In this document: in pieces, positions 4,509-61,357 of the stretch
Layout of the letters: each line of letters opens with the position of its first letter
Numbering within the stretch: position 1 is the stretch's first letter
Source: an uncultured Actinomycetes bacterium
GTDB lineage: Bacteria > Actinomycetota > UBA4738 > HRBIN12
NCBI GenBank assembly: GCA_963723855.1
Contig: CAVRSI010000011.1
Span: forward strand, 122,181-186,180
DNA length: 64,000 nt
Direction: 5' to 3'
The notes under the pieces: model-generated
The model's input: only the letters and a program-made list of their open reading frames with translations
The model's database searches: none
Told to the model about the DNA's origin: nothing
Made by a program: the position numbers and the translations under genes

Positions 4509-5714
4509 CTAGGCCAGACGGCCGAACCAGCGCCGTCCGACCTGCAGGACCTTGCCGGCCAGCTCCTCGCGGCGCGCCTCGTACGAGGGATCGGTCACCG
4601 GTTCGTCGTCTAGCCTGACCCCGCCCTGCTCGATCCGCCGGCGGGCGTCGCCGTTGGAGGAGGCCAGGTCCAGGGCCACGAGCAGCCTCGGCAACCACAC
4701 CATCCCGTCTTCGGCGGCCCCGTCCGGGATCTGCACCTCGGGCACCACCTCAGGGAGCTCACGGTCGCGATGGACCCGGTTGAAGGCCTCCTCCGCGCGT
4801 GCCCCTGCGCCCGCCCCGTGATAGAGGTCCACCACCATCCGGGCCATCGCCCGCTTCTGGTCGTTGGCCTTCAGCGACCCATCTTCGAGACCCGACTCGA
4901 CGCCCGTGACCGCGTCCGTCGGCCGCCACGCCGCCAGCCACAGGTATTTGCCGATCAGCCCGTCGGGGATCCTCATCAGCTTGCCGAACATCTCGTCGGG
5001 TGCCTCCGTGATGCCCACGTAGTTCCCGAGCGATTGGCTCATCTTCTGGACCCCGTCGAGCCCCTCGAGGAGCGGCACGGTCATCGCGACCTGCGGGGCC
5101 TGATCCCACGAGCGTTGGAGCTCCCGCCCGACCAGCAGGTTGAAGAGCTGATCGGTTCCGCCCAGCTCGATGTCTGCCTCCACCGCCACCGAGTCATAGC
5201 CCTGCAGGAGCGGGTACATGAACTCCATGATCGAGATCGGACGGCCGTCCGCGTAGCGTGCCGCGAAGTCGTCGCGTTCGAGCATCCGAGCCACCGTGTA
5301 CGAAGACGTGAGCCGCAGCACGGCCTCCATGTCCATGCGCTCGAGCCACTCGGAGTTGTACCGGACCTCGAGTCGCTCGGTCGACAGGATCAGGCCGAAC
5401 TGCTCCAGGAGCCGCTCCGCGAATGCCTTGACGACGTCCTTGTCGAGTCGCGGGCGCGTCTCCGACTTCCCGGACGGATCGCCCACCCGGGCGGTGAAGT
5501 CGCCGACGATCAGCACCGCGACGTGCCCGGCGTCCTGGAACTGGCGGAGCTTGCGGAGCACGACGGCCCAACCGAGCGTCACATCCGATGCGGTGGGATC
5601 CAGCCCGAGCTTCACCCGCAACGGTCTTCCGAGCGCGAGCTTCTCCGCGAGTCCGCCTTCGGGAACGACCTCGGCGGTCCCGTCCTTCAGCAGGGCGAGA
5701 GCGTCGGGAGCCAT
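4509..5714 (-). CDS. tyrS: Tyrosyl-tRNA synthetase
   Basis: 401 aa ORF with class I motifs (KMSQS), tyrosine-binding region and a C-terminal S4-like domain. Confidence 0.95.
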   Translation of the reverse strand: MAPDALALLKDGTAEVVPEGGLAEKLALGRPLRVKLGLDPTASDVTLGWAVVLRKLRQFQDAGHVAVLIVGDFTARVGDPSGKSETRPRLDKDVVKAFAERLLEQFGLILSTERLEVRYNSEWLERMDMEAVLRLTSSYTVARMLERDDFAARYADGRPISIMEFMYPLLQGYDSVAVEADIELGGTDQLFNLLVGRELQRSWDQAPQVAMTVPLLEGLDGVQKMSQSLGNYVGITEAPDEMFGKLMRIPDGLIGKYLWLAAWRPTDAVTGVESGLEDGSLKANDQKRAMARMVVDLYHGAGAGARAEEAFNRVHRDRELPEVVPEVQIPDGAAEDGMVWLPRLLVALDLASSNGDARRRIEQGGVRLDDEPVTDPSYEARREELAGKVLQVGRRWFGRLA

Positions 5715-5765
5715 GGCGACCGGATGCTACCAGCGCGAACGGGAGCCACGGGTAGACTCGCTCAC

Positions 5766-8013
5766 GTGCGGAAGAGCTCGGGACTCCCCCTCGTTCTCTT
5801 CGTCGTCTTCGCGACCATCACGTCAGCGTGCGGCGGTCTCCCACGGCTGTCCGACTACCGCCAACGGTCGATCCCGCTCGCCCAGACCTCGTTCCTGTAT
5901 GCGTCCGACGGAAGCCTCATCACCGAGCTGCACGCCGGCGTGGACCGGGTGATCCTGTCTCGAACCCAGATGCCGCAGACGATCCGCGACGCGGTCGTCG
6001 CCATCGAGGACAAGCGCTTCTACTACCACCACGGGTTCGACCTGCGCGCGATCATCCGTGCGGCCTACGCGGACGTCTCCGCGGGCCAGATCGTCGAGGG
6101 TGGATCCACGATCACGCAGCAGCTCGTGAAGCAGCTGTACGTCGGTGACGACGAGACCCTGCGTCGGAAGATCGACGAGGCGGTGCTCGCCTGGCAGCTC
6201 GAGGACCGGCTCACCAAGGATCAGATCCTCACGAAATACCTCAACACGGTGTACTTCGGTCAGGGCGCGTACGGCATCCAGGCGGCCGCACGCTCGTACT
6301 TCGGGATCGACGCGAAGGACCTCACCCTCTCTCAGATCCGCCTTGCTGGCCGGGCTGATCCGCGCGCCGAACGACTTCGACCCGTTCGCCCACCCGGTGC
6401 ACGCACGCGTCAGGCGTAACAACGTGCTTCGGCAGATGCTCGACCAGGGGATGATCACGCCGTCCCAGAAGGACGAGGCCGTCGCCGAGCCGATCGAGCT
6501 CCACGCGTTCACGTCTCGTCAGCGGTACCCCTTCCCCTACTTCGTCGACTACTTCAAGCAATGGTTCCTCTCGAACCCGGCGTTCGGAAAGACGCGCGAG
6601 GACCGATACCAACTGCTGTTCACCGGCGGGCTCCGCATCACGACCACCATCGATCCCCAGTTCCAGCGGTACGCGCAGAGCGCGGTCCGCTCCGTGCTCC
6701 CGTATCCTGGCGACCCATCGGGCGCGATGACCGTGATCGACCCCCGGACGGGCTACGTCCGCGCGATGGTCGGCGGGGACGACGCCGACTACTGGAACGC
6801 CAACTCCGGCGACGGTCGCGTGAACCTCGCGACGGGAGGCAGCACCGGCCGGCAGGCGGGCTCGTCGTTCAAGCCGTTCGCCCTGGTGGCCGCGCTGGAG
6901 AACGGCATCTCGCCGAGCACGGTGTTCTCCGCGCCGTCCTCGATCGACATCCCGCTCGACAACGGCGAAGTGTGGCACGTGACCAACGCCGAGCCGAGCA
7001 ACTACGGCAGCCTCACTTTGGAGCAGGCGACGATCTCCTCGGTGAACACCGTGTACGCGCAGCTGATCGACGAGCTCGGCGCGCAGACCGTCATCGACGT
7101 CGCCAAGCGAATGGGGATCCGGTGCTGCCAGCGCGTCTCGGAGCCGAAGCGGCCGCTGCTCCCCTACCTGTCGGCCGTCCTCGGGACGAACGAGGTCAAC
7201 ACGCTCGAGATGAGCTCCGCGTACGGGACGCTCGCGACCGGCGGGCAACACGTCAACCCCATCCCGGTGATCAGCATCCTGGATGCGGACGGGCACCCGA
7301 TCTGGCAGGCGAACCCGAACCCCAAGCAGGTCGTCGACCCGGCCGTCGCGTCGGCCGCCAACCAGATCCTGCAGAAGGTCGTGCTGTACGGGACGGGGAC
7401 CGCCGCGAACATCGGGCGGCCGCAGATCGGCAAGACCGGTACGAACCAGAACTACGCGGACGCGTGGTTCGTCGGAGCCATCCCACAGCTGGTCGCCGCC
7501 GTCTGGGTGGGGTTCCCGCAGGGCCAGATCTCCATGTACGGAGGGTTCACGAGGATCACGGTGTTCGGAGGGACGTGGCCGGCGCAGATCTGGCGACTCT
7601 TCATGGAGAAGGCCGCGGCCACGTACCCGGTACGCAGCTTCCCGACACCGGACGTGAACTACGTGGCCGTGGCGGTCGACGTGACCCAGGACCCCTATTG
7701 CCTCCCGAACCAGTTCACGTTGCCGCAGAACATCCAGACCCTGGAGTTCATCGCGGGGACCGAGCCGACGCGCACGTGCACCGAGCCGTCCTCGCTGCAG
7801 TCGATACCCGTCCCGTCGGTCGTCGGACTCTCGCAGGCGGCCGCGATGACGATCCTCGGCGACGCCGGGTTCTACGTGAAGGTGGTCCTGGCCGTCTCGA
7901 CCCAACCGCCGGGCACGGTCATCTCCCAGAGCCCGTCGGCCGGCGTCTCCGCGTTCCAGACGAGCTCCGTCCTCATCACCGTGTCGAAGGATCTCTCGTC
8001 CCCGAGCGGCTAG
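5766..8013 (+). CDS. ponA: Class A penicillin-binding protein (transglycosylase/transpeptidase with C-terminal PASTA domain); apparent frameshift near 6345
   Basis: Glycosyltransferase motifs [10 protein letters not shown] and [11 protein letters not shown] sit in one frame (GTG at 5766; an alternative ATG is at 5724). The continuation [14 protein letters not shown]..., the transpeptidase domain and the PASTA domain are in a second frame (6145..8013). The two frames meet at about 6340-6350. Confidence 0.85.
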
Positions 8014-8632
8014 TGGCCCGCCCGCGGCGCTCGCGAGAGACGGAGGGATCTCCGTCCACCCAGAAGCGCCACGCATGTTCGAGACCCACGCGGATCCCGA
8101 CACGCGGGCCGGCGACGACGAGCGCGCTCGCCGCGGGGGTTCCCTCCGAGATCCAGATGTCGGCTCCGCGAACGAGGTCCGCGCCGTCCAACGATCGGTC
8201 GACGCCGAACGCCTGACAGAGCTTGGCGGGCCCGGAGCAGAGATCGCGATCCTTCGAGCGCCGCACGACGTTCTCGCATCTCGTCCAGCCCTTCGATCGG
8301 CTCGGCGGCACGAAGCAGCACCGCCATCCCCTCTCCCGCTCGGCCCGTGACGGCGTTCATGCAGAAATGCATGCCGTAGGTGAAGTACACGTACAGGTGG
8401 CCCGGTTCGCCGAACATCACGGCGTTCCGCGCCGTCCGCCCCCGGAAGGCGTGGCTCGCCGGGTCATCGGGCTCATACGCCTCGGTCTCCACGATGCGCG
8501 CCGCGAGCCGTGACCCGTCCCCCGAACGCGCCACGAGGATCCTGCCGAGCAGGTCGGGGGCGACCAGCGAGGACCGGCGCGCGTAGAAGCTCCGTGGGAG
8601 TCGCGGCCCGAGGGGTTGGCCGTTGCTCAGGC
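7976..8632 (-). CDS. mpg: DNA-3-methyladenine glycosylase (Mpg/AAG family); apparent frameshift near 8300; start codon uncertain
   Basis: The N-terminal part ([22 protein letters not shown]...[13 protein letters not shown]...) is in the 8010..8810 frame. The C-terminal part ([20 protein letters not shown]...WRFWVDGDP) is in the 7976..8311 frame. No canonical start lies near the expected N-terminus; CTG is the only candidate. Confidence 0.7.
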
Positions 8633-11295: not shown

Positions 11296-13696
11296 CTATA
11301 CGGGAGGCCGCGCTCGCGCTTCGTCGCCTCCGTCGCGGAGCTCGCCGCGCAGGTCCTGCGCGACCCGGGCACTGATGCGACCGACCGCCTCGTCGGCCTC
11401 GTCGCGCTCGAGCGTGCGGGAGGGGTCGCGGAACTCCACCGAGAACGCCAAGCTCTTCTTGCCGGCCGGCAACGGAGGTCCGGTGTGGACGTCGAACAGG
11501 ATGCAGGAGGCCACGAGGTCGCCGCCCGCCTCGCGGATGGCCGACACGACGGCGTCGTGCGGGACCGCTTCGTCGAGCACGAACGACAGGTCCCGGCGGA
11601 TGGGTGGGAACCTCGGGACGTCGCCGGCCTGCAGCGTCGTCGCGGCATGGCGCATGAGCGTCTCGATCTCGAGCTCCGCCGTGGCGATGCGCCCGGGGAC
11701 GTCGAGCGACTCCGCCACCCGCGGGTGGATCTCGCCGAGCACGCCGACGCGCGCGCCGTCGACCAGGACGAACGCCGAGCGACCCGGATGGAACAACGGG
11801 CCGGGAGGCTCACCCAGCGACCACACGATCCCGAGATCGGCCATCAACGCGTCGACCGCCCCCTTCGCATCGAAGAAGTCGTACTCGCGACGACCTGTCC
11901 AGGCGCTCTCGGCCGCTCCCGTGAACGCGAGGGCGGCCATGGGCCGCTCCTGGGGCTCCCCTTCGACCATCCGGAAGACCGTCCCGACCTCGAAGAGGGC
12001 GACGCTGCGCACCTGCCGGTAGGCGTTGCGGCGGATCGCGGCGAGCAGGCCCGGAGTGAGCCGCGTTCGGAGCCAGGGATCGTCGGCCTGCAGCGGGTTC
12101 GTGACGGCGATCGCATCGCCGTCGCCCGTCAGCGCCAGGTCCGCGTCGGATGCGAACGGGAACGACCGGACCTCCCGCAGCCCGGCCCGCATCAACGAGG
12201 TCCGGACACGGTGGCGGAACTCGTAGGCGTCCGGCATCCCTCCGGGCTGGCGGATCGCCGGGAGGGTCGATCCGACCCGGTCGTAGCCCTGGACGCGCAC
12301 GACCTCCTCGATCAGATCGACCTCGCGCTCGATGTCCACCCGATAGCCGGGCACCTCGACCGTCACGTCGTCGCCCGAGACCTCCGACCGCATCATCAGG
12401 CGTTCGAAGACCTGGGCCGCGTCCCCCGGCGAGACGTCGTAGCCGATCAGCGTCGTGGCCCGGCCGGCACGCATCGTCACGTGCCGCCGCTGCGGCACGG
12501 CTCCGGCCTCGACCGTGCCGCGAAGGACGCGGGCGCCGCACCACTCCGCCATCGAGACGGCACGCCCGATCCGCCCCGATCGACGCAGCCTCGGGATCGA
12601 CCCCGCGCTCGAACCGCATCGAAGCCTCGGTGGAGAGGTCGATCCGCCGTCGCGTCCTCTGGATCCCGCCGCGTTCGAAGGACGCCGCCTCGAGCAGGAC
12701 CTGATCGGTCGCGTCGGAGATCTCGGCGACGGAACCGCCCATCACGCCGGCGATGCCGACCGGACGCTCGAGGTCGCAGATCAGCAGGTCGTCGTCGGTG
12801 AGCGTCCGTTCGACGTCGTCGAGGGTGACCATCCGCTCGCCCTCGGCCGCCCGTCGCACGACGATCCCCGGGCCCTTGAGGAGCGCGAGATCGAACGGAT
12901 GCAGCGGTTGTCCGATCTCGAGCATCGCGTAGTTCGTGGCATCGACGGCGGCCGAGATCGGACGCATCCCCGCAGCGGTCAGGCGCGCCTGCACGCGGAC
13001 CGGCGATCTGGTGTGCCGAACGCCGCGAAGGATGCGAGCGACGTAGTGGGAGCACCGCTCCGGGTCGACGACGTCGACCGTGGCGACGCCTTCGGCGGGC
13101 TCCTCGTCCTCGACCACATCGATCGGCGGGAGCGTGAACGGGACCCCCGTCGCGGCCGCAACCTCCCGCGCCACGCCGATCACGGACAGGAAGTCGGCCC
13201 GGTTCGGCGTCACCTCGATATCGAGGACCGCGTCGTCCAGTCCCAGCGCCGCCTTCAGATCGTCGCCCGGCGTGAGGTCGTCGCCGAGGAGCAGGATGCC
13301 TTCATGGGTCGGCGCGATGCCCAACTCCATCGGCGAGCAGAGCATGCCTTCGGACACCACGCCCCGGATCTCGCGCGCGGTGAGCGGGGCCGGCAGCGCC
13401 GGTACCCGCGCGCCCGGTCCCGCGAGCGGTACGAGATCGCCCGCGACCATGTTGCGAACGCCGACGACAACCTCACGCTCCGACGAGCCGGTGCTCACGC
13501 GTGCCAGGCAGAGCTTGTCCGAGTTCGGATGGTCGCGGACCTCGAGGACCTTCGCGACGACGACGCCCTCGAGCCCGTCCCACGGGCGCTCGATCCGTTC
13601 GACCTCCGAGCCTTTCGACGTGAGGAGCTCGGCCAGATCCTCCGCCGAGAGGTCGACCGGGCAGCACTCGAGCAGCCAGGAGCGGACGATCTTCAT
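11296..13696 (-). CDS. pheT: Phenylalanyl-tRNA synthetase beta subunit; apparent frameshift near 12545
   Basis: The N-terminal 629 aa (MKIVRSWL... through B3/4 and B5 domains) is in the 11810..14314 frame. The C-terminal 418 aa, including the FDX-ACB domain, is in the 11296..12552 frame. Removing a single T near the ADRA/AVSMAEWCG junction would restore the frame. Confidence 0.9.
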
Positions 13697-14739: not shown

Positions 14740-14768
14740 CTGGCCGCCGAGTCTAACAACGTCCCTGT

Positions 14769-32298: not shown

Positions 32299-32304
32299 GC
32301 GGGA

Positions 32305-39852: not shown

Positions 39853-39856
<4 letters not shown>
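38554..39856 (-). CDS. pyrC: Dihydroorotase; apparent frameshift near 39222
   Basis: The N-terminus [14 protein letters not shown]...[10 protein letters not shown]... is in one frame up to ...GQPAEAEEV. The continuation [22 protein letters not shown]...DHAPH... is in the 38554..39801 frame. Deleting one base restores the frame. Confidence 0.9.
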
Positions 39857-41400
<1,544 letters not shown>

Positions 41401-44232: not shown

Positions 44233-44259
44233 GCGCCCGCTCCCATGTCGTTGAGCACC

Positions 44260-45310: not shown

Positions 45311-45804
45311 GCGGACCAACGAAGCTCCTCCACGATGGCGTCGGCGACCTCGGCGGGCGAGGCGGTCCCGTCGACCACGTGCGCCGCGAACTCGCGGTAG
45401 AGCGGCTCCCGAGCCGCCAGGAGGCGTTCCAGGTCGCCCTCCGTCCGGATGAGCGGCCGGTCCGCCGCGGGACGCACACGGGACCGGAGATCCTCGAGCG
45501 GCACGTCGAGGAACACCGCCACGCCGGTGTTCCGCAGGGTGATGCGGTTGGCGGGCTCCAGGACGACGCCGCCGCCGCACGCCACCACGGCCGGGTCGTG
45601 CATGCTCGCGTCCGTCAGCGCGGCGGCCTCCCGGGCGCGGAAGGCCGCCTCTCCCTCGGCGGCGAAGATGTCGGCGACGCTCGACCCCGTCTCGCGCTCG
45701 ATCTCCGAGTCGAGGTCGATGAACGGGACGCCCAACCGCCCCGCGAGCTCCTTGCCCACGACCGACTTGCCCGCTCCCGGCATCCCCACCAGGTAGACGA
45801 TCAT
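45307..45804 (-). CDS. aroK: Shikimate kinase
   Basis: About 165 aa starting [22 protein letters not shown]-loop kinase. Confidence 0.9.
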
Positions 45805-46953
45805 GCGAGCGTCTCCACGTACGCGTCCAGGTTCCGCCGCACCTCGGCCAGCGAGTCCCCGCCGAACTTCTCCACGACGGCGTTCGCGAGCTCGAACGCG
45901 ACGACCGCCTCGCCGACGACCCCTCCGGCCGGCACCGCGCACACGTCCGTCCGCTGCTTGATGGCGACCGCGGCCGCGCCCGTGGCCAGGTCCACGGTGG
46001 CGAGCGGACGGGGAACCGTGGAGAACGGCTTCATGGCGGCGCGCAGGCGGATCGGCTGGCCCGTCGACATGCCGCCCTCGATGCCCCCCGCGCGAGCCGT
46101 CTTGCGCCCGATGCGCCCGTCCCGGACGCACGATCTCGTCGTGGGCGTTCGATCCGGTCCGGCCGGCCGACGCGAACCCGTCGCCCACCTCCACGCCCTT
46201 CACCGACTGGATGCTCATCAGGGCCAGCGCGAGCCGCGCGTCGAGCTTGCGGTCGTAGTGCACGTACGAGCCGAGCCCGGGAGGCGCGCCGTACGCCACC
46301 ACCTCGAAGACCCCGCCGACCGTGTCCTTCGACCGCCGGATCCGATCGATCTCGGCGACCATCCGGTCGGCGGTCGCCTCGTCCGTGCAGCGCACCGGCG
46401 ATGCGTCGATCGCGTCCAGGTCGGCCAGGACCGGGACGCGCGACCGCGCCGGGACCTTCACGCTTCCGATCTGCACGACGTGTGAGAGCACGCCGATCCC
46501 GATCTCCGCGAGGAACGCCTTGCAGCAGGCCCCGACGGCGACCCGCGCGGCCGTCTCGCGCGCGCTCGCCCGCTCCAAGACGTTGCGCACGTCGTCGAAG
46601 CCGTACTTCTGCGTCCCGACCAGGTCCGCATGGCCCGGCCGCGGACGGGTGAGGCGCGCATCCGGATCCTCGGCGCCCTCGACGGCCATCAGGTCCGCGT
46701 ACTTCGCCTCGAACTCCACGTTGGGGATCGTGATGGCGATCGGGGAGCCCAGGCTGGTCCCGTGGCGGACGCCCGTCAAGATCTCGAACCGGTCGGCCTC
46801 GAACCGCTGCCGGCCTCCGCGCCCGTAGCCATGGCGGCGCCTCGCGAGCTCCCCGGCGATCTCCTTGGGAACGATCCCCACACCCGCCGGGAGGCCCTCC
46901 ACGATCGCGACCAGCGCTTTGCCGTGCGATTCGCCGGCCGTGAGCATCCGCAA
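45801..46953 (-). CDS. aroC: Chorismate synthase; apparent frameshift near 46112
   Basis: The N-terminal ~270 aa ([25 protein letters not shown]...) is in the 45307..46965 frame. The C-terminus ([24 protein letters not shown]...DAYVETLA) is in the 45801..46070 frame. One base is missing in CCGGG/ACGGG. Confidence 0.9.
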
Positions 46954-47014
46954 CATGGCGTTCATCTTACGGACCGGCCGAGGCGCCGGATGGGCGGGGG
47001 CGTGGTCTTGATGG

Positions 47015-47050: not shown

Positions 47051-47100
47051 GCCGGCGACCGCTCCCCCCGTGGGCGGATCGCCGGGACCCGGAACCCGTC

Positions 47101-47760
47101 TACTTCGACGGGACGAAGCAGAGCGTGAAGGACTGATCTCCGAACAGGAACGTGGCACAGTCGCCGGCGACGTCCCGCAGCTCGAAGTTCCCCCCCGCGA
47201 ACGTGTCCCCTTCAGCCGGGTGGTAGACCGTGCCGTCGACCGACGACCGAGGCGTGCTGCACGCCGTTGGAGGTGTACGTGTCGATCAGCACCACCTCAT
47301 GACCGCCGATGGTCGTCGACGATCCGTTCGTCGGCGGCAGGGTCGGCCCGGTCGGTCCGGGGCCGGTCGTCCCACCGGTGGACCCCGTCGGCCCGGGACC
47401 CGTCGTCCCACCGGTGGACCCAGACGGCCCCGACGGCCCGGGTCCGGTGCCGGTGCCGCCGGTGGACCCTCCGGGCGCCGGGAACTGCGGCGGGATCGAG
47501 AACGGATCGCGCCCGGAGAAGATCGGGCTCGGGGCGGGTCCGCCGCTCTGCGACGGGGACACGCTGCCGGTCGGTCCGGTCGACGGAACGCCGGTGACGC
47601 CGGTCGGACCACCGCTCACCGATGGCCCCACCGAGAGCGGCGGCAAGGCCGATCCGCCGCCCTTCCCCAGCTGACCGAGAAGGAGCAGCGCGAGGACCAG
47701 CACGCCGGCCACGATGCCCCCGATCTTCAGCGCCTTACGGTCGCGTTCGTTGAGAGGCAT
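47101..47760 (-). CDS. PilP-like type IV pilus protein: N-terminal TM helix, Gly/Pro/Ser/Thr-rich tandem-repeat linker and a small C-terminal domain; apparent frameshift near 47225
   Basis: Reads [28 protein letters not shown]..., then a linker ([13 protein letters not shown] x2), then ...[19 protein letters not shown]. The continuation [46 protein letters not shown] (stop about 47101) is in the adjacent frame. Confidence 0.5.
47351..47421 (-). repeat. Two copies of a 36-bp in-frame tandem repeat encoding [12 protein letters not shown] inside the PilP-like gene
   Basis: Near-identical 35/36-nt units at 47351-47385 and 47387-47421. Confidence 0.8.
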
Positions 47761-47763: not shown

Positions 47764-48414
47764 TCAGGCTCCTGGCTTCGTCTCGGCTGCCGGCGAAGGG
47801 CTCGTGGGCGCGGTCGTCGCGGTCGTCGCGCCGGCCGCAGAGGTCGGGCCAGGCGATGAACCCGGGCCAGCGCTCTCGTCGCTCGTGTAGATGTCGACCG
47901 AGGCGGTGAGGGTCAACAGGCTCGAGTTGCTTTCGGAGGGCGAGGGCGAGATCGACACCGCGGTCGTCTTCGCGGCGCGCGGGAGCGTCTCGACCTTGAA
48001 CAGGAACTCCGTGAGCGCGAAGTAGGAACCGGTGGTTGAGATGGCGTTGGCCACGGTGGACAGTCCCGTGGCCGGGTCGAAGATGGGATTGGTCGGCGTG
48101 ATCGTGACGACGTCGACCCCCGACTCCACGGCTGCGTTCTGCATCAGCAGCATGAACCCTTGCTGGTCGACGGTCGGCGGGATCGCTTGCTGGACCTTCC
48201 GGATGGTCTCCCGGTTCGCCGGGGCCTCTGCCTGGGCCGCCTGAAGAGCCGCCAATTGCGCACCCAAGGTCGCCTGCTGACCCTGCGCCTCCGCGAGAGC
48301 GGCGTTCGCATCCTTCACCTGACCCATCTTCGGCAGCACCAGGAAGAACCCCACCAGCACGACCGCGGCGGCGGCGGCGATCCCGGCGAACAGCGGCGCG
48401 CGCTTACCCCCCAC
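47764..48414 (-). CDS. pilO: Type IV pilus assembly protein PilO
   Basis: Has a TM helix (LFAGIAAAAAVVLVGFFLVL), a coiled-coil region and a periplasmic domain. Probable GTG start at about 48414. Confidence 0.7.
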   Translation of the reverse strand: MGGKRAPLFAGIAAAAAVVLVGFFLVLPKMGQVKDANAALAEAQGQQATLGAQLAALQAAQAEAPANRETIRKVQQAIPPTVDQQGFMLLMQNAAVESGVDVVTITPTNPIFDPATGLSTVANAISTTGSYFALTEFLFKVETLPRAAKTTAVSISPSPSESNSSLLTLTASVDIYTSDESAGPGSSPGPTSAAGATTATTAPTSPSPAAETKPGA

Positions 48415-49034
48415 CCTGCACGTCCCCTCGGCCGCGAGGCGTGAGCGCGTCCTCCGAAAGGTCGACCCCGCTGGTGAAGGTGTACAAGCCCGGTATTCGG
48501 ACCGGTCTCGGTGGCGCTCGAGACCCAAGGGTTGACCCATCCCTTAACCGATTCGAGCCTCGTGATCCAGCTCGCTAGGCTTTCGAACCCGTCCGCCGCC
48601 CCGCCGGCGGTGAACGACCCCACGAACGTCGTGGTGGTCGACGCCGCGGCTGTCCCGGTCACCGGCGCCGTGAGCGAGGCACTGAACGAAGAGAGGTACG
48701 CGTCCGATGGGATCGTGCGGGAGAGGTCCATCAGCATCTCCGAGAACGACACTTCGCCGACATACGCCTTCGCGAGCAGCGCCTCCTGCGCGGCGGCCTG
48801 CTCCTGGAGCTGCTGGAACTCCTGCAGCTGACCGATCTGAGCCTGGAGCTGCTGGTTCGTTGCGTTCTGTGCCGCGATGTCGTCGTTGATGCCCGCCAGC
48901 TTCTGGCTCTGCAGGAACCAGAAGGCGATGAGCAGCACGACCACCGCCGCACCGGCCCCGACGATCAGTGTGGTCTGCTGTTTGGTCTTCTGCCGTGCGC
49001 GAAGCTCAGGGGGAAGGAGGTTGACCTGACTCAC
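48404..49034 (-). CDS. pilN: Type IV pilus assembly protein PilN; possible frameshift near its 3' end (about 48460)
   Basis: Starts MSQVNLLPPELRARQKTKQQT with a TM helix. The ORF tail after ...SSATETGPNTG looks out of frame. The adjacent frame gives LYTFTSGVDLSEDAL... ending at TAA 48404, 8 nt before the pilO GTG. Confidence 0.8.
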
Positions 49035-50293: not shown

Positions 50294-50327
50294 GCGGTCA
50301 CCCTCCTCCGAGTGCTCTTGTTGTCAC

Positions 50328-51469: not shown

Positions 51470-52288
51470 TTAACCGTCCGCGTTTGCCTCACTCTCACCG
51501 TGGAGGGACGGGTTGCTGATCAGTTCGGCGATGGCTAGCCCAAGCAGAACCAGTCGTCGTCGGGGAGGATCCCGCCTGCTGCGACGGCGCCGGCGCTTGC
51601 TGGCCCAAGATCTCAAGACAGATGCATCGGCTTCGCCAAGGCTTGGCGCATTCACCAAGGTGCCTTGAACAACCACCCCGATCGTGCAGGTGCCGCCGAC
51701 GCTGTAATAGAAATCCCCATTGAGTGCGGTGTTGATCGCCCCTGTCACGTTGAAATCGCCGAACACGCTCCTGTAACAAGTAGGTGCTCCGGCTGGTGGG
51801 GTGATATTGGCCGTCGTCGTAGCAGTCGTCGATGTGAGCAGGTATCTGCCCGCGTTCGCGTCCAGGGTGATGCCGGTAGCTGTCACCGAGATGCCTGTTC
51901 CGGGGCCGATGGACGCGAAGGTCGCGCTTGCGGCCGAGCAGGTCACGACGTCGGGCGAGATCACCCCGGTCAGCGAGCAGAGGGTCATCGTGGCCGCATT
52001 CGCGCCGTCGTAGACCTTGTCGGCCGCAGTCACGGTTGCGGTCACCGGCCGATACAGCGTCCCGCCTTTGGCCCCATAGCCTATGCAGAGCGCCTCACTT
52101 GGAAACGTTGTTCCGTCCGCGCGGACGAGCGTTTGCCAGCCGCCCTTCTGACAGAGTTTCGCATTCGTGGAGTTGCTGCCAGCGAAAGCGATTCCGACGT
52201 TGACGACGAGCATCACAACCACAAGGCCGAACGTCGCCACGATCGAGACCATGCGTCGAGCCCTTCGGCGCTCACGTCTCGCCCTCAT
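51470..52288 (-). CDS. Secreted/membrane-anchored protein with an MBG/YDG-type adhesin-repeat signature, in a lower-GC island
   Basis: Has an Arg-rich N-terminus plus hydrophobic segment (MVSIVATFGLVVVMLVVNVGIAFA) and a Cys-containing region. It carries a KVYDG...LTGVISPDVVTCSAASATFAS...GRYLLTSTTATTTANIT block typical of MBG/YDG repeats. Local GC is about 55-60%. The C-terminal ~60 aa may be out of frame. Confidence 0.5.
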   Translation of the reverse strand: MRARRERRRARRMVSIVATFGLVVVMLVVNVGIAFAGSNSTNAKLCQKGGWQTLVRADGTTFPSEALCIGYGAKGGTLYRPVTATVTAADKVYDGANAATMTLCSLTGVISPDVVTCSAASATFASIGPGTGISVTATGITLDANAGRYLLTSTTATTTANITPPAGAPTCYRSVFGDFNVTGAINTALNGDFYYSVGGTCTIGVVVQGTLVNAPSLGEADASVLRSWASKRRRRRSRRDPPRRRLVLLGLAIAELISNPSLHGESEANADG

Positions 52289-53475: not shown

Positions 53476-54957
53476 GGACCATGGAACCTACGAGGCCTCG
53501 CGCACGTACGCGATGTCCTCGCGGAACGAAGTGATGGTGCCGTAGCCCGGAACGAGCACCGGGCGGAACGTCATCGTGTAGTTGTTCCCGATGACGACAG
53601 TGCCGCCCATGACCTGGCCGTAGTAGTTGTTCTGGTTGTTCATGTTCGCCGCGCAGGGTGTGTAGAAGAAGACCTGGGTGTTGGAGTCGAAGTTCGTGAG
53701 GTTCCCGACGCTGACGTCCTTGCTTGACGTGCCTGTCGGGCAGGGAGATGGAGCGGGCCATGTGCTGATGAAGAAGATGCTCTCGGTCGCGGAGGCTCCG
53801 TTCCAATTGGATTTCTGCTGGAGGTTGATGCCCCAGTCCGTGATGATCGCTAGGTTCCCATTGACACCTATCGTCTTGTTGTTGCCGTTCGAGAACGTGC
53901 AGGGGGTCGCGCCGGGTCAATCCGCACGACGAAGCTCCCAGACCAGGAACCCTCGACGAACGATCGGGCCTGACTGCAGGCGTCTCCCACCGAGAACGTA
54001 TTGCCTCCGCATGTCGTGGACGCCGACGCGCCAAACGTGCATACCGTGTATCCCGCATTGACCCAGTTCGTTTGGTCCGTCGCCGTGAACGTGATCTGAG
54101 GGAAGGGTTGGGTCGGAGGCCTGGGCGACACGGTGTTCGTGTATGACGTTCCGGCCACGGAGACCCCGCTGATCGTCGTGCCCGCAGTAGCGCTGTTGCC
54201 GATCGATTCGCTGCCGCCGATCGAGGAGCTTGAAGAGGTGACGCTGCCCGAGACGCTCGTGGGGTTGGCCATGGTCACACTGTCGTTGGCCCACAGGTTC
54301 CCCTGGATGTTCGAGTTGTTTGAGATCGACGCCGCCCCGTATGGGATGTAGACGTTGCCGCGAATGCGTGGCGTGTTCGTGATGACGAGGTCGCCGTTCA
54401 ATATGTACACGTCGCCGTCGTTCCCGTTATTGCCGTAGATGTCGAAGTTGTTCGGGAAGTTCGCGCCATTGTTGGTAAGGACGGCGGCTCCGAAGCCCCC
54501 GTAGACAGGCATTAGTCGGATGTAGGTCTGCATCGTCCTCGGGGTTTGACCGCCAACCGTTCCCGTAGTGGTGATGAATACCGACGACGGGTAAACCGCG
54601 TCGGTAAAGGGACAGTTCATCACGTGCGCAGGGGTAAGCAAACCACTGGCGTCGTAAAAGGTCGGCGTCGCAGTGAAGCTAGCGCTCGCCGGCGCGCTCG
54701 CGATCGACTGGGTCACGGGGTTACAGCTCAGCGTCGTAACCGGGGTGGACTGCAGGAGCGCGTAGTAGTAGTTCGCGCCGGATTCGGCGGCGTCTACTGA
54801 GGTCAGCCTTTGCCGGTCGTAGCCAGTGGACTGCGCGTCGTGGATCGACTGCGCGACGATCACGGTGGACAGGATCAGCAGCACCATGCTCACGAGGAGG
54901 GCGATCACCATCGCCATTCCTTCCTCTCCGCTCGATCGGATGCGCATCGTTAGCTCC
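53476..54957 (-). CDS. Large PilX/PilY-like pilus-associated protein (about 490 aa); apparent frameshift at a C5 run near 53905
   Basis: The SD TAAGGAG precedes an ATG at about 54957. It starts MRIRSSGEEGMAMVIALLVSMVLLILSTVIVAQS and has Asn/Gly-rich beta-solenoid-like repeats (NGANFPNNFDIYGNNGNDGDVYILNGDLVITN...). The C-terminal ~140 aa (GVNGNLAIITDWGINLQQK...FREDIAYVREAS) is in the adjacent frame. Confidence 0.5.
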
Positions 54958-54984
54958 TTACGGTTCACGTTGGCACGTTCGTGG

Positions 54985-55580
54985 GCAGGGTGGCGCAGAC
55001 GGCGAGCGGATAGCCGAACGAGGTGTTTCGGCCCGTCACCGAGGTCTGCAGTCTTTGGGTCGCATTGGCGGACCCCGTCGGGGTCCGAGTTGACGAGGAA
55101 CTGCACCGTCATCGTCCGCCCGGTAGGATCAAGCGTGAATGCGCTCTGTGATTGGGCGCGGTTCAAGATGCCGTCGGCAACGACCTGCCAGGTCAAGGCT
55201 CCCGGCGTGATGTTCGGCTTCCAATACCCGTACATCAGCTGGTTCTGACTGTTGATCGTCCACAGAGCGCAGCGGCTGATGTCATCCTGTGCTGAGTAGG
55301 CCTGGGTGTAGATGAGGAACGTATACCCTGCGGCGTTGGGCGGGTACAGGAGATTGCCGGAGCGCACCTGGCGGTCGATCGTCTGCATGGCGAGGCGGAC
55401 CTGGTTGATCGTTCTGGACCGCACGTCCTCGTTCACGCTTGCCTTCTGGATCGATGTCAAGGTCGATAGCAGGATCACCATGGCGATCGACAGGATGCTC
55501 ATGGCAACCACTAGCTCGACGAGCGTCATGCCTCCGTGTTCGTGGAGGCGCTGCCGTAGCTTGGCGATCCGATTCGCCAT
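54985..55580 (-). CDS. Minor pilin with prepilin-type N-terminal cleavage/methylation domain
   Basis: Starts MANRIAKLRQRLHEHGG|MTLVELVVAMSILSIAMVILLS (G-1, E+5). Its 3' end is unresolved because the track ORF runs into the next gene, so a terminal frameshift is likely. Confidence 0.65.
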
Positions 55581-55585: not shown

Positions 55586-57369
55586 TCACCCGGCCGCCGG
55601 CGCGGGAGCGTAGACACTTCGCGTGAGCATCGTCCCCATGTTGATAGCGATGTTCAGGTTTATCGCCGTCGCCCCGTCGACGATCACCACGTAGTGCACC
55701 GTCGCCTTGAAGGGCGTCACGCTTGAGTCCTCGGCCGTGCACTGGGTGAGCGTCGCGCTCGGCGTGCACGTCCGGGTCGAGCCGGACGTGGCTGCTTGGA
55801 TCCCGAGCTCACCGAGATGGTCACCGTGACAACGTGCCCGCCGACCGTGGCGGTCTGGGTCGCGGGAGGCGCAACGATGTTGTTGAGCAGCGCATCTGTC
55901 ACCGAGCGAGAGGTGTAGCTTGCACCGTTCCAGTAGGAGATCGTGCCGGCCGACGGGGCGGCCGCCGGCGCGGCCGTGGTCGTCGACCCCGCCTGGGAGG
56001 TCGCGCTGTCCCGGTATCCGGTCATCGAGAGCAGGTAGCCAGTCCAACCGGCCGGCGCGCCGACCGCCGCCGGGAAGGCGCCGATGTTCACCTGGCCGAT
56101 GTTCCGGGTGGCCGACCGCGACGCTGCCGTCCTTGCCGGGGTCCACCTGGCGATTGACGAAGGACGTGTTTGGGTTGCTCGCGGCCGCGTCGACGCTCGC
56201 AAGCGCCGCGGTGCCGAGGCCCCCAGCAAGTCCATTGAGAGTCATGGAGGCCGTCAGAGGCGCCTCCCTGCTGGATCCGCCCGCCGACGCAAGGGAGGTT
56301 ATCGGTCTCAGCCGTATCGGTCGGGGGCGGGCAGACGTTGGTTCCCCCGGCAGCGACCGCGGCGTCGGCCAAGCCGGCGTCATTCGGTGGCGCTCCAGGT
56401 CGATGGACGTCGAGCCGTTGGTGGACGAAACCGCACCGCCTAGGCCCGAAACCGGCAGACTCGTACCGTAGGTGAGGGCGGGTGCTCCCGGGTCTGAGTC
56501 CGCGGCGCTCGCCGTCGTGAGCGTACCGGCGTCCGTCCGTGTGCCAGCCCCATCTGTCACCGAGACCTGGGACTCCGAGAACGACGCCCGACCTACCGTC
56601 ACTTGCTCGTTCTGAAGGTTCGACTCCGTTCCAGTCAGACCGAGGTAGCCGCTCGTGAAGTTGTTCAGGCCCTGGATCGACCCGCTGATATCGATATGCG
56701 CTGCCGGCACCTGCGCGAGGCCGTAAAAGGACGGTTGGCACGGAGCCGCGAATGGGTGGGTCGACGAGCTCAGGCACCCACTCGGCGACGAGAACAGGCT
56801 CTGGATCTGAACGAGGTTGTTGGCCTTGTTCGGGTAGGCAGCGCTTGTCCAGCTAATCATGACGGTGACCCGGTACGGGGTCATCGCGGGGCAGGTGGCC
56901 GTCACCGAAGGGCAGTCGTTAGTGACGTAGGTCTGCCAGTTGAAAGCGATGTTATTCGTCGTCGCGGTCGCGGCGATCGTGCCGGTGTGTGGATTGATCC
57001 ACGGCGTCGAAGGCACGCCACCGGAGTTCACGATCCGCTCGCCTGAGCAGGACTGGAACCGGTAGACGATCGGTGTCCCCCCACAGTTCGCGATGTTCGG
57101 GTCTGTTAGATCACTGCTGGACAGCCCCGTCTGGATCTTCGAGTACGCCTGCCCTCGGATGGTCTCCATGATCTGGTCCGCGATGCCGTCGGCGGTGACA
57201 CGCTCGCGGCCGTAGGCGATCGAGTGGAACCCGAGGGTCGCCGTGTACGCCATCGCGACCATGGCGGCGAAGATGATCGTGATCGCGATCATCGTCTCGA
57301 TGATGGTGAATCCGCGCTGGTCGTCTTTGGCGAGCGCAGACAGGCGCCTTGCAGTATCGCCCGGGTCAT
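55586..57369 (-). CDS. Large minor pilin / pilus tip protein with prepilin leader; several apparent frameshifts (leader at about 57349, body at about 56400 and about 55760)
   Basis: The ATG at 57369 (SD GGGAAGGA) gives MTRAILQ in one frame. The joined reading would be RRLSALAKDDQRG|FTIIETMIAITIIFAAMVAMAY. The body is Thr/Ser-rich and its pieces lie in at least two frames before the common stop at about 55586. Confidence 0.55.
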
Positions 57370-57723
57370 ACGGTCCTTCCCTATGTCAACAGCTGTCGAG
57401 TAATGGGTCGGCAACTCGGCTGGCCGGCTTGAGGTCATCTGGGGGATATCCCGCGGATCGGGTAGGTCGAACGACTCAGGTTCCTTGGGTACCGGACCGT
57501 GGCAGGATTCCTTGAGGGAGGACGACACCTCGTCTGATACACATGCCCAAGAGAACGGAGCACACAGAAGGGGCGGCCCGGAGGCCGCCCCTTGCGTGTG
57601 TGCCGTTCCTGATCGTCTGTTACGGAATGCGGGTGCCGCGGCCGCAGCAGCAGCGGTGCCTGTGCAGTTGGCCGGCGCGCGGTGGAACCATAGGTGGTGC
57701 CTCCGGCAGCCGAGTCTTTGATC

Positions 57724-58122
57724 TAGTAGCAGGTACCCGACGCGGACAGGCGGTCCGCCGACCAAGAATTGTGTTTGGGGCGCCGTAATGTCGGCGGCAC
57801 CGGCCGGAGCGGTGCATCCATCGTCTGTGGCAGCCGGGGCGCCGCCACGTAGCACAGCGACGGCTCGACCGTCTTCAGGCCGGTCGCGGCCGGTCGTCTG
57901 CGACCTGCGTATGGTGCTGGCGTCCGTGTAGATCGTCTTCGCAGCCACGAGGGCGTTGCGAAGGTCGGACTGCGCCGCGCGGTTCTGGGCCCGGGTACGG
58001 GCGCCCAGGAACGTCGGCAGTGCGATGGCGATCAGGATGCCGATGATCAGAACGACCACCATCAGCTCGATGAGGGTGAAGCCGTCCTCATCCTGCTTGC
58101 GCTCGAAATAGCGCTTGAGCAT
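57724..58122 (-). CDS. pilA: Type IVa major pilin paralog 1; apparent frameshift near 57905
   Basis: Starts MLKRYFERKQDEDG|FTLIELMVVVLIIGILIAIALPTFLGARTRAQNRAAQSDLRNALVAAKTIYTDAST, preceded by SD GGAAGGGAG. The Cys-containing C-terminal segment (...EPSLCYVAAP...GTCY) is in another frame. Confidence 0.8.
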
Positions 58123-58172: not shown

Positions 58173-58808
58173 CTACTGGGTCAGGGTTTCGGCGTCTGCG
58201 GCATCCTGCTTGAGGGCTCGGCGCTCGTCCGTCCATGAATACCTGGGAACGGGTAGGACGCGGGCTACCAGCCGGCGGCGGCGGGGCTGTCGCGGCGGTC
58301 GCGGTTCGCCGCTGCCCACGTCGCCGTGCAGTTCGGCGGCCGTCGTCTTCCCGTACTTGGTCCCGGTCGTGCCGTCGAGGATCACGAAGCACGTGCTGCG
58401 ACGCCGACAGCCGAGCCGCGGAGAACTGCGTCGCCGTCGAGTGGACGCTGATCGACCCGATCCCGCTCCCGCTGGCGCACGCCGGGAGCGACGGGGTTCG
58501 TCGCCGCCGATGCCTGCCGTTGGCACGTAACACATGTTCGGGATGATCGTGACGAGCCCGTGCCGGACTCGTCGGCGGATGTGAACGTGGCGTTGTCCGT
58601 GTACAGGATCCGCGCCGCCAGGACCGCGTTCCGCAGGTCCGATCTGGGCGGCGCGGTCCTGGAACCTCGCCCGCACGCCGAGGAACGTCGGCAGGCCCAT
58701 CACGATCAGGATGGCGAGGATCATCACGACGACCATCAACTCGATGAGCGTGAAGCCGTCCTCGTCCTCGTCGCAAGCCGTCTGCCAGGTTCGGAGCACC
58801 GGTGCCAC
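58173..58808 (-). CDS. pilA: Type IVa major pilin paralog 2; multiple apparent frameshifts
   Basis: GTG start with SD GAGAGGAG; reads MAPVLRTWQTACDEDEDG|FTLIELMVVVMILAILIVMGLPTFLGVRARFQDRAAQ. The continuations SDLRNAVLAARILYTDNATF... and ...IIPNMCYVPTAG... are in other frames. The 3' end is uncertain. Confidence 0.7.
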   Translation of the reverse strand: MAPVLRTWQTACDEDEDGFTLIELMVVVMILAILIVMGLPTFLGVRARFQDRAAQIGPAERGPGGADPVHGQRHVHIRRRVRHGLVTIIPNMCYVPTAGIGGDEPRRSRRAPAGAGSGRSASTRRRRSSPRLGCRRRSTCFVILDGTTGTKYGKTTAAELHGDVGSGEPRPPRQPRRRRLVARVLPVPRYSWTDERRALKQDAADAETLTQ

Positions 58809-58982: not shown

Positions 58983-60199
58983 TTACTGGATCAGCTTGAT
59001 GATGTTGAACATCGGCATGTAGAGCGCGATGACCGCGGCTCCCACGGCTCCTCCGATGATCGCGATCAGGAGCGGCTCGATCAGCGACGTCAGGGCGTCG
59101 ACCGACGCCTCGACCTCCTGGTCGTAGAACTTCGCGACCTTCTCGAGCATGGTGTCGACCTGGCCGGTCTCCTCACCCACCGCGAGCATCTGCACGACCA
59201 TCGGCGGGAACACGGCGTGCCTCGCGAGCGGCTTGGCGATCGACTCACCTTCGCGGACGCTCGCCTGCACGTCGACGACCGCCTTCGACATCACCTTGTT
59301 GTTCACGGTGTCCGCGACGATGTCCAGCGCCTGCAGGATCGGGAACGCCCGAGCGCAGCAGCATCGCCGGCCGTGCTGGAGAAGCGGGACAGCGCGGTCT
59401 TGTGGAAGAGCGTGCCGAAGATCGGGATCTTCAGCTTGAGCGCGTCGAGCGTCGCCCGTCCGGCTTCCGTCTTCTTGTACCGCCTGAAGAGGAACGACGA
59501 ACACGAACGTGAGCATGATGAGGAGTCACCAGTACTTCTTCACCGCGTCCGAGGCCATGAGCAGGACCCGGGTCGGCAGCGGCAGCGTGCCGCCGAGCTG
59601 CGTGTAGATGGTCTTGAACTGCGGCACGACGAACAGCAGCATCGCCGACATGATCAGGACGACCAGCGCGACGACCGCGACCGGGTACGTCATGGCCGAC
59701 TTGATCTTCTGCCGCAGGTGCACCTCGCGCTCGAGCACGTCGGCCAGCCGGAGCAGCACGTCGTCCAACATCCCGCCCGTCTCGCCCGACTTGACCATGG
59801 CGATGTAGAGGTCGTTGAACGCCTTGGGGAACTTCGCCATGGCCACGGACAGGCTCGAGCCCTGCTCGACGTCGTTGCGGACGAGCGTCAGGGTCTTCGC
59901 GAGCTCCTTGTTGCTGACCTGGTCGGACAGGATCGACAGCGCGCGCAGGATCGGCAGGCCGGAGTTGACCATGGTGGCGAACTGCCGGGAGAAGATCGCG
60001 ACTTCCTTGAGCTTGATCTTCGCCGGCCTGATGTTGATCTCGAGGTTGAGGCCCTTCTTCTCCTTGCCGACCTCGAGCGGGGTGTACCCCATCTCGCGGA
60101 GGCGCTCGAGGACCAGGCGCTCGTTGTCGGCGACGAGGGTCCCCGTGACGAGGTTCCCGGACTTGTCCCGGACCTTGTACTGCGTAGGACTCAGACATA
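58983..60199 (-). CDS. pilC: Type IV pilus inner-membrane platform protein PilC (GspF family); at least three apparent frameshifts (about 60185, 59530, 59400)
   Basis: The ATG overlaps the pilT stop. The first GspF repeat (...FSRQFATMVNSGLPILRAL...) is in the 59526..60482 frame. The second repeat (...FPILQALDIVADTVNN...LIEPLLIAIIGGAVGAAVIALYMPMFNIIKLIQ) is in the 58983..59516 frame. The central TM segment is in a third frame. Confidence 0.85.
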
Positions 60200-61357
60200 G
60201 TCGCCTCCCGACATCATCGAGCCCATCGCCATGGCTCCGCCGCCGTCCATCGGAGGCGGAGCGGAGGCGCCGCCGACCAGCCGCTGGAGCTCCTCGGGGT
60301 CGTGGCAGCGCTCGAACGCCACCTGCTGGTTGATGCGGCCGGCCTTCACGTGCGCGGCGATCGACATGTCCATCGTCTGCATCCCGTACCGGCCGCCGGC
60401 CTGCATCGCGGAGTAGATCTGGTGGACCTTGCCCTCGCGGATCAGGTTGCGGATGGCCGGGGTCGTGACCAGCACCTCGCACGCCGCGACGCGTCCCTGG
60501 CCGTCGGTCGTCTGGAGCAGCTGCTGCGTGACGACACCCTGAAGCGTGGTCGCCAGCTGCACCCGCACCTGCTGCTGCTGGTGCGGTGGGAACACGTCGA
60601 TGATGCGGTCGATCGTCTGCGGCGCGTCCTGCGTGTGCAGGGTCGCGAAGACCAGGTGGCCGGTCTCGGCCGCCGTGATCGCGGTCGAGATCGTCTCGAG
60701 GTCTCGCATCTCACCGACCAGGATGACGTCGGGGTCCTGACGCAGGACGTGCTTCAGGGCCTGGCCGAACCCGTGCGTGTCGGCGCCGACCTCGCGCTGG
60801 TTCACGATGCACTTCTTGTGCTTGTGCAGGAACTCGATCGGGTCCTCGACGGTCATGATGTGGCCGGCCCGCTCCTCGTTGACCACGTCCACCATGCCGG
60901 CGAGCGTGGTCGACTTGCCCGAACCCGTCGGGCCCGTCACCACGACGAACCCACGCGGGAACCGGGCGAGGTCGGCGACCACGCCCGGGAGGCCGAGGTC
61001 TTCGAGCTTCTTGATCTCGAACGGGATGAGCCGGAACGCCGCGCCGAGCGCGTCGCGCTGCTGGTAGACGTTCACACGGAAGCGCGCCTGACCCGGCAGG
61101 GAGTAGGACATGTCCAGCTCCAGCTCCTGCTCGAACCGCTCGCGGAGCTTCTGCGGCAGGATCGCGTAGATCATGCCCTGAAGCGCCCGGGGCGTCAGCG
61201 GAGGATACTTCTCCAGCCGCTCCAGCTCGCCGTTCACACGCACGACGGGCGGGGTCCCCACCGTGAGGTGGAGGTCCGAACCGCCAACCTCCAAGAGCGC
61301 CGTGAGCAGCTCCGGGATCGGGATATTCACGTCGTCTTGATCTGCTTGCATCACCAT
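60191..61357 (-). CDS. pilT: Twitching motility ATPase PilT
   Basis: 388 aa with Walker A GPTGSGKST, the PilT AIRNLIRE motif, and an intact frame. Confidence 0.95.
   Translation of the reverse strand: MVMQADQDDVNIPIPELLTALLEVGGSDLHLTVGTPPVVRVNGELERLEKYPPLTPRALQGMIYAILPQKLRERFEQELELDMSYSLPGQARFRVNVYQQRDALGAAFRLIPFEIKKLEDLGLPGVVADLARFPRGFVVVTGPTGSGKSTTLAGMVDVVNEERAGHIMTVEDPIEFLHKHKKCIVNQREVGADTHGFGQALKHVLRQDPDVILVGEMRDLETISTAITAAETGHLVFATLHTQDAPQTIDRIIDVFPPHQQQQVRVQLATTLQGVVTQQLLQTTDGQGRVAACEVLVTTPAIRNLIREGKVHQIYSAMQAGGRYGMQTMDMSIAAHVKAGRINQQVAFERCHDPEELQRLVGGASAPPPMDGGGAMAMGSMMSGGDYV

Follow-up and report, generated by a model that had tools for sequence, protein, structure and literature searches.

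Single-base insertions interrupt conserved genes in an actinobacterial metagenome contig and very probably reflect consensus errors among co-occurring strains

Interrupted genes across the window

The window analysed here is a 64,000-nucleotide stretch of contig CAVRSI010000011.1, from an uncultured Actinomycetes bacterium, and it carries about 60 genes. Alignment and tblastn comparison with intact orthologues revealed that 22 of these genes (about a third) are interrupted, mainly by single extra bases, and a codon-usage Viterbi segmentation of the window also placed switches of coding frame inside conserved genes. Coverage by relatives of 92-96% nucleotide identity extends over 6.2-50.5 kb and 57.7-64 kb of the window, and the closest of these relatives are MAG contigs from Microflora Danica, produced from Nanopore reads with the metaFlye + Medaka pipeline (PMC12313526). 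In clean contigs at ~94-95% nucleotide identity all genes are intact, among them a 1.57-Mb contig (L011/L015; ~94.7% identity to the window), and all genes are likewise intact in a more distant relative, L012 (84% identity). The rRNA operon and 4.5-6.2 kb lie outside the comparison with relatives, because exact-protein look-ups for polX, aroQ, pilM and tyrS gave no match. The minor-pilin proteins of the Microflora Danica panel also had no match to the window, and usable minor-pilin references were obtained by one large protein search. The interrupted genes, and one spacer, are listed below; residues are those of the orthologue in tblastn, and "both alleles" marks an insertion that leaves the two alleles of a panel SNP in tandem.

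5766..8013, plus strand: ponA (class A PBP; start approximate); extra G at 6335 relative to loci L014 and L015; residues 1-33 in frame +3, 30-588 in frame +1
7976..8534, minus strand: mpg (3-methyladenine DNA glycosylase); extra base at 8261; residues 1-91 in frame -3, 92-185 in frame -1
11296..13696, minus strand: pheT; extra base at 12553; residues 1-381 in frame -1, 382-799 in frame -2 (orthologue of 799 aa, intact in L014 and L015)
29076..30269, minus strand: coaBC; extra bases at 29999 (both alleles, C/G), 29870 and 29748, each missing from 8-9 of 9 relatives
31614, no strand: spacer between pyrF and mihF; extra base (both alleles), missing from 11 of 11 relatives
31623..32308, minus strand: pyrF; extra bases at 31980 and 31957; residues 1-109 in frame -1, 115-227 in frame -3
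34121..37409, minus strand: carB; extra base at 36267-36270, where relatives read CTCGCC[G or C]ACC and the window reads CTCGCCCGACC; residues 1-381 in frame -3, 381-1095 in frame -1 (orthologue of 1095 aa in clean relatives)
38554..39860, minus strand: pyrC; extra bases at 39847 (relatives G or T, window GT) and 39211 (both alleles, C/G); two frames
41550..41720, plus strand: tatA; extra base at 41684 (both alleles, C/G); a single tblastn HSP, residues 1-45 of 56
42155..42722, minus strand: efp; extra base at 42323; two frames
42738..43813, minus strand: pepP; extra bases at 43574 (both alleles, T/C) and 43553; residues 1-88 in frame -1, 87-357 in frame -3
44229..45319, minus strand: aroB; extra bases at 45218 (in CCCGGG) and 44342; three frames
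45801..46965, minus strand: aroC; extra base at 46128 (relatives G or C, window GC); two frames
47100..47760, minus strand: PilP-like gene; extra base at 47244 (both alleles, C/G); residues 1-172 in frame -2, 173-219 in frame -3
48404..49034, minus strand: pilN; extra base at 48486; two frames
51535..52288, minus strand: YDG-domain gene; two single-base deletions near 51610 relative to L114, the sole comparator (88% identity)
53488..54947, minus strand: PilX-like minor pilin; net +2 at ~53904-53913
54965..55580, minus strand: minor pilin B; extra C at ~55076 (C3 to C4), missing from L114 and L115; residues 1-175 in frame -3, 174-210 in frame -1
55586..57371, minus strand: minor pilin A; leader base missing at ~57350, ATG out of frame; comparator L114 only
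57650..58122, minus strand: pilA copy 1; ~6 frame changes and one in-frame stop
58268..58808, minus strand: pilA copy 2; ~10 frame changes
58983..60198, minus strand: pilC; extra bases at 60181, 59496, 59366 and 59340; TGA stop at 59526-59528
63075..63916, minus strand: hypothetical 279-aa gene; extra bases at 63285 and 63193; three frames

Full-length orthologues from clean relatives returned adjacent tblastn HSPs in different frames for ponA, mpg, pheT, pyrF, carB, pyrC, efp, pepP, aroB, aroC, the PilP-like gene, pilN, the 279-aa gene and the pilins. The shifted segments of coaBC and pilC are short, and these two genes therefore aligned in one frame, with identity lowered to 76% and 87%, respectively. 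With locus L114 as the reference, the multi-frame pattern was also found in the YDG-domain gene, the PilX-like gene and minor pilin B, and minor pilin A aligned in one frame with a leader that lacks one base. A preliminary description of this DNA had reported at least 20 genes readable in two or three frames; every gene that it named was confirmed by the Viterbi segmentation, tblastn and the comparison with L114, and tatA (41684), the YDG-domain gene (~51610) and the 279-aa gene (63193, 63285) are added to its list. Frameshifts are indeed present in the span of 4509-60200 that it gave, but this span ends too early, because the shifts in the 279-aa gene carry the frameshifting beyond 60200. Likewise, its view that the frames are joined by 1-nt indels holds at the junctions, nearly all of which are insertions in the window, but not at ~53908, where the net change is +2.

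The few events that are deletions fall in the variable pilus region and rest on the single comparator L114. Eight homologues of the PilX-like protein (472-501 aa), several of them on JGI metagenome contigs, all change frame at ~53904-53913 when aligned to the window. The extra C in minor pilin B produces an apparent fusion with the PilX-like gene; the preliminary description had warned that the frameshifts affect apparent gene fusions. Frame changes in the two pilA copies were placed with an intact pilin of 157 aa, from L001, as the reference in a frameshift-aware alignment, and the sister assemblies L021, L022 and L023 carry shifted pilin segments of their own. JGI contig L003 carries an intact pilC of 403 aa.

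Assembly-private insertions on SNP columns

The indels are private to this assembly, almost all of them are 1-nt insertions, and they lie outside homopolymers and on SNP columns. Window-private indels were counted in 6.3-50.4 kb (~44 kb, well covered by relatives), and all 21 single-base events found there are insertions, with no deletions; a 2-nt intergenic insertion is additionally present at 50319. Where several relatives cover a site, between 7 of 9 and 11 of 11 of them are without the extra base, and sites 6335, 8261 and 12553 are covered by two loci only. In a nearest-neighbour scan, the window did not look like a mosaic of panel strains; it differs by 2-9% from every one of them, and the window-private class could therefore in principle include real lineage-specific changes. 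An exact 41-mer spanning the carB insertion is absent from GTDB representative genomes, and a scan of JGI contigs in which the extra base was optional recovered only two distant contigs (~75% identity), both without the base, which is weak negative evidence.

Homopolymer errors in Nanopore reads are mostly deletions, whereas those in the window are insertions. Indels in homopolymers, the textbook source of Nanopore frameshifts (PMC9262707), were the cause favored in the preliminary description, and classical length errors of the Nanopore or Ion Torrent type at low coverage were considered on that basis; a few sites do extend a short run, namely GG to GGG at 31957, CC to CCC at 36267, CCCGGG at 45218 and C3 to C4 at 55076. 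However, the inserted base is unlike both of its neighbours at 14 of the 21 sites, compared with 49% expected for random insertions. A random insertion abuts an identical base 51% of the time, and homopolymers are thus, if anything, under-represented. Furthermore, no window-private length change was found in any of the ~78 runs of at least five bases that are covered by relatives, and the indels reported in C5 or G6-7 runs were accordingly unconfirmed wherever such runs could be checked. As in the earlier Nanopore case (PMC9262707), single-base indels in the window break conserved genes and reference-guided repair restores their length; unlike that case, the window has insertions, placed outside homopolymers, and its long runs are correct. 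Homopolymer error is largely refuted by these observations and is a very improbable cause of the pattern as a whole.

The extra bases are instead placed on polymorphic positions. Both alleles of a panel SNP stand in tandem at 6 of the 11 resolvable window insertions, compared with 5.9% of simulated random insertions (P = 1.5e-5), although this pattern is confined to about half of the resolvable sites, and at some the extra base simply lengthens a GG or CC by one. In sister assemblies, 48 of 120 sites are of the both-allele type (P ~1e-27). The in-frame stop of pilC may have a related origin: the codon at 59526-59528 is TGA in the window, TAG in L002 and TGG or TAC in relatives, and the TGA looks like a mixture of two real relatives' alleles, TGG and TAC. 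Divergence within 15 nt on either side of the sites is not raised (0.053 vs 0.054), and within 3 nt there is a trend only (P = 0.057); no regional effect is therefore claimed, except in the hypervariable pilA genes, where errors are very densely packed. Judged from these sequences, the insertions on SNP columns and the mixed pilC codon point to consensus or polishing errors that arise from strain heterogeneity.

Intact frames after repair and the improbable case of pseudogenes

Once the extra bases are removed, the genes regain their full length, and they are still under purifying selection. The repaired ORFs measure 396 aa for coaBC (the length in L011), 434 aa for pyrC, 188 aa for efp (the length in relatives), 387 aa for aroC, 209 aa for pilN (as in L026) and 279 aa for the hypothetical gene (as in L001 and L003), and for nearly all of these genes the repaired alignments are codon-for-codon and gap-free. 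The expectation that a one-base repair against a homologue would restore a full-length protein was thus borne out, with ORFs of orthologue length. Downstream of the shifts, differences from orthologues comprise 480 synonymous and 149 non-synonymous changes (ratio 0.31), compared with 1171 and 287 in intact genes (ratio 0.245); by this measure, relaxed selection downstream of the lesions was not found.

If the lineage were in reductive decay, or the cells of the population defective, genuine pseudogenes would also leave many conserved genes interrupted. Reductive genomes such as that of Mycobacterium leprae contain stops and deletions, share their lesions among independent isolates and show relaxed selective constraint. 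The window resembles such genomes in its many interrupted conserved genes, but none of those traits holds in it. Only two in-frame stops were seen against ~50 indels, most of them single-base, and no large deletions were seen inside genes in the window, which is not a mixed lesion spectrum. The genes hit, 22 of ~60, include pheT, carB, coaBC and pyrC, and the substitutions downstream of the shifts are mostly synonymous. Moreover, the clean contig of ~94.7% identity, from the same population, is fully intact, and other contigs of that population carry the same lesion type in different genes, at 0.05-3.4 per kb and with insertions several-fold more frequent than deletions. The both-allele pattern, in addition, has no known mutational basis. 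In favor of pseudogenes, the lesions do stand in the sequence as given, and two insertion sites recur in another assembly: the insertion at 29999 is common to the window and L005, and across 45218 the window and L024 have the same sequence. These two cases are read as recurrent artefacts, though real polymorphism would look alike. A control took indels shared by at least two assemblies as "real", but the region is 97% coding and many of the shared events look like recurrent artefacts. On balance, genuine decay is exceedingly unlikely.

Pilus genes are phase-variable in some bacteria. The densest lesions of the window do fall in the pilA copies, but programmed ribosomal frameshifting, transcriptional slippage or phase variation is scarcely credible at any of the sites, which lie outside repeat tracts and are uninterrupted and in frame in relatives, so that no shift is conserved, and 6-10 shifts per pilin gene are unlike a switch.

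Strain heterogeneity as the probable source and its consequences

Taken together, these data make it very likely that the frameshifts are absent from the organism and are consensus errors in a long-read metagenome contig built from co-occurring strains. The preference of the preliminary description for an assembly or consensus artefact over real pseudogenes is thus strongly supported by the private insertions, the restored ORFs and the synonymous differences. The contig is most likely a Nanopore assembly made with metaFlye and Medaka, to judge from the platform and software of its relatives, and the error spectrum of the window matches that of Microflora Danica contigs.

As for the exact step that introduces the extra base, we infer the following. 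The contig would have been assembled from reads of several co-occurring strains that form one species-level population, and a SNP between strains would make the read pile-up ambiguous. The consensus may then sometimes keep both alleles in succession, and such tandem alleles would add one base and shift the frame; alternatively, alleles of adjacent SNPs may be mixed, possibly into a stop codon. Consensus errors of the metaFlye type under strain heterogeneity were seen in the myloasm benchmark (PMC12424758), which, like the population of the window, involves co-occurring genomes of ~95% identity and finds poor consensus quality in some contigs and good quality in others. That benchmark (PMC12424758) gives Q-scores only, and the window adds 1-nt insertions of tandem alleles and mixed-allele codons. 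This signature was derived in the present analysis and not from the literature.

There is a very small chance that part of the type IV pilus damage is real, namely the lesions of both pilA copies, the pilC stop at a Trp/Tyr codon and the lack of a PMT gene. Co-existing strains would in that event carry length-variable or inactivated pilus genes, amounting to surface variation under phage or predator pressure, and consensus errors would merely blur a real signal in the pilus genes.

Under the favored explanation of strain-derived consensus errors, many public Microflora Danica contigs share this class of error, at rates that reach 3.4 per kb. Its signature is a 1-nt insertion outside homopolymers by which a SNP column is duplicated, and it could serve for flagging or repairing the affected sites even when reads are lacking. 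If the breaks are strain-merging mistakes, the genes are therefore almost certainly intact in the organism. Inferences drawn from the window, such as pseudogenes, truncated proteins or fusions like that of minor pilin B with the PilX-like gene, need the frame-corrected sequence. The window holds no biological novelty: it is a syntenic and ordinary segment of the chromosome of a soil actinobacterium, and its genes are intact.

Gene content of the window and frame-split genes

The window has a G+C content of about 70%, and nearly all genes between 4.5 and 63.9 kb are carried on the minus strand in an order that is typical of actinobacteria. A search for tRNAs across the 64-kb window found none, and no tRNA was seen in the spacer of the rRNA operon. 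Non-coding features and gene-order blocks are as follows.

1-4175, minus strand: rRNA operon, comprising 23S (truncated at the start of the window) and 16S
21453-21581: FMN riboswitch, upstream of ribD
Block 1: tyrS, ponA, mpg, polX, argF, pheT-pheS
Block 2: TrmH-like gene, rplT-rpmI-infC, ribH-ribBA-ribE-ribD
Block 3: GGDEF gene, rpe, rsmB, fmt, def, priA, metK, coaBC, rpoZ, gmk, mihF
Block 4: pyrF-pyrD-pyrK-carB-carA-pyrC-pyrB-pyrR
Block 5: nusB, efp, pepP, aroQ-aroB-aroK-aroC
Block 6: type IV pilus cluster

The preliminary description had reported conserved genes split by single-base frameshifts between 4509 and 60200. A clean reading in two frames is no proof of a frameshift, because at such G+C each of the six frames contains long open stretches. 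Codon-usage Viterbi segmentation revealed that the coding frame switches within conserved genes. Intact window proteins (PilB, RpoZ, L20, an HTH protein, PyrR) served as exact look-up queries to retrieve related DNA. Identity of these relatives to the window is 92-96%, covering 6.2-50.5 kb and 57.7-64 kb. Nearly all of them belong to one ENA assembly series with contig_N names, which a genome scan identified as Microflora Danica long-read MAGs with the label 'uncultured Actinomycetes'; these MAGs are Nanopore-only metaFlye assemblies with one round of Medaka polishing (PMC12313526).

Full-length orthologues taken from the cleanest relatives were used as tblastn queries. Adjoining matches in differing frames were returned for ponA, mpg, pheT, pyrF, carB, pyrC, efp, pepP, aroB and aroC, as well as for the PilP-like gene, pilN, the pilins and a hypothetical 279-aa gene (63075..63916, minus strand). 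For coaBC and pilC the match was in a single frame with reduced identity because the shifted segments are short, and tatA gave one match only, stopping at residue 45 of 56. In total, 22 of the approximately 60 genes are interrupted. Every gene named in the preliminary description is confirmed, counting those of the pilus locus described below, and the frameshifts continue to 63285. At 14769-16199 a TrmH/SpoU-type rRNA methylase continues into a C-terminal portion that matches HisKA weakly (476 aa in all); this fusion is not an artefact, because the protein has the same length in L014 and L015, both clean relatives.

Single-base insertions and the both-allele signature

Pairwise alignments were all projected on window coordinates, and an event was retained when 70% or more of the relatives spanning it supported it. 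Between 6.3 and 50.4 kb, all 21 single-base window-private indels were insertions (one of them intergenic), accompanied by one 2-nt intergenic insertion, and no window-private deletion was found against the covering relatives. Removal of the extra bases, a check that had been proposed at the outset, yielded ORFs of exactly orthologue length, and nearly all repaired genes aligned gap-free and codon-for-codon with the orthologue. Differences from orthologues 3' of the shifts comprised 480 synonymous and 149 non-synonymous changes (1171 and 287 in intact genes); this synonymous excess indicates that the original reading frame stayed under purifying selection. Just two in-frame stops were seen: pilC and pilA copy 1 have one each.

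At several insertion sites the relatives are split between two bases and the window carries both in tandem; at the carB site, for example, CTCGCC[G or C]ACC in relatives corresponds to CTCGCCCGACC in the window. Sites were assigned to this both-allele type when deletion of either of two adjacent, different bases left a sequence identical to that of at least one relative. This held for six of 11 resolvable window sites, compared to 5.9% of 20,000 simulated random insertions (P = 1.5e-5). Divergence within 15 nt either side of the insertion sites was not raised, and the association is therefore with the SNP column itself rather than the surrounding region.

The insertion at 29999 also occurs in relative L005, and L024 is the same as the window across 45218. 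This sharing is read as one variable position having attracted an error more than once; it is possible that these two sites are instead real polymorphism, as each is present in another assembly. Homopolymer errors, the cause favored in the preliminary description, were rejected, because 14 of the 21 inserted bases are unlike both neighbors (49% expected for random insertion into the window sequence) and none of the ~78 relative-covered runs of at least five identical bases (111 in the window) shows a window-private length change. The GGG, CCC and CCCGGG contexts that it had pointed to do occur at insertions, but not above chance. Real pseudogenes were rejected because the reading frame is under purifying selection past the shifts and relatives keep the frame at every site, and programmed frameshifts and phase variation because, in addition to these intact frames, no site lies in a repeat tract.

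The insertion sites are unevenly spread, with some close pairs, and a 17.2-kb segment of about 20 genes (12553-29748) has zero frameshifts (P about 0.001 under uniform placement); possibly, the reads there came from one strain alone.

Lesions in the pilus locus

In the minor-pilin region a close relative was absent from the panel of relatives; a single protein search supplied PilX-like homologues (470-500 aa) and the locus L114, whose pilus cluster is intact. Comparison with these revealed further shifts in the YDG-domain gene, the PilX-like gene and minor pilin B. The minor pilin B shift accounts for the seeming fusion of that gene with PilX, and minor pilin A has one base absent from its leader. 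Frameshift-aware alignment placed ~6 shifts plus the stop in pilA copy 1 and ~10 shifts in the other copy. The pilC stop falls at 59526-59528, where the KKYWW motif has its second Trp codon; this codon is TGA in the window, TAG in the sister assembly L002, and TGG (Trp) or TAC (Tyr) in other relatives. Both TGA and TAG look like mixtures of two real alleles made by the consensus step.

L021 and L114 carry a PMT-family gene (protein-mannosyltransferase-like, ~442 aa) that separates the pilA copies from the minor pilins and lies on the opposite strand. No tblastn match to it was found in the window (57511-57846 region), where L114 5750-7390 is without counterpart; its absence may reflect true variation between strains or a collapse in the assembly. 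A 2.3-kb lower-G+C stretch (50320-52650), with pilD on one side and an HTH_17 gene on the other, contains the following.

50623-51498: ORF with a weak Exo_endo_phos match
51470-52288: YDG-domain ORF

In most Microflora Danica relatives the HTH gene directly follows pilD, and L114 has the YDG gene and additional genes.

Error pattern in relatives and probable origin of the frameshifts

Broken genes differ between the relatives' contigs, and all genes are intact in L011/L015 (a 1.57-Mb contig) and L012. The private indels of relatives are mostly 1-nt insertions, and their rate ranges from 0.05 to 3.4 per kb (3.4 in L005), compared to 0.5 per kb in the window.

Private insertions and deletions in three relatives
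L005: 55 insertions, 9 deletions
L006: 20 insertions, 1 deletion
L007: 19 insertions, 0 deletions

Among the relatives' private 1-nt insertions (n=178), 73% lie between different bases, and 48 of the 120 resolvable are of the both-allele type (P about 1e-27). Private 1-nt insertions disrupt carB, coaBC, metK, priA, pilM and others in L005, L006, L007, L019-L025, L029 and L030.

The relatives' intact frames, purifying selection and the both-allele sites uphold the initial attribution to assembly, and the frameshifts are very probably consensus artefacts of long-read assembly from a mixed strain population. We infer both the platform and software behind the window itself and the step that would add the extra base. 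The window must be frame-corrected ahead of any gene-level inference. The biological interest of the frameshifts is low; the both-allele signature could serve to identify errors in related public MAGs.
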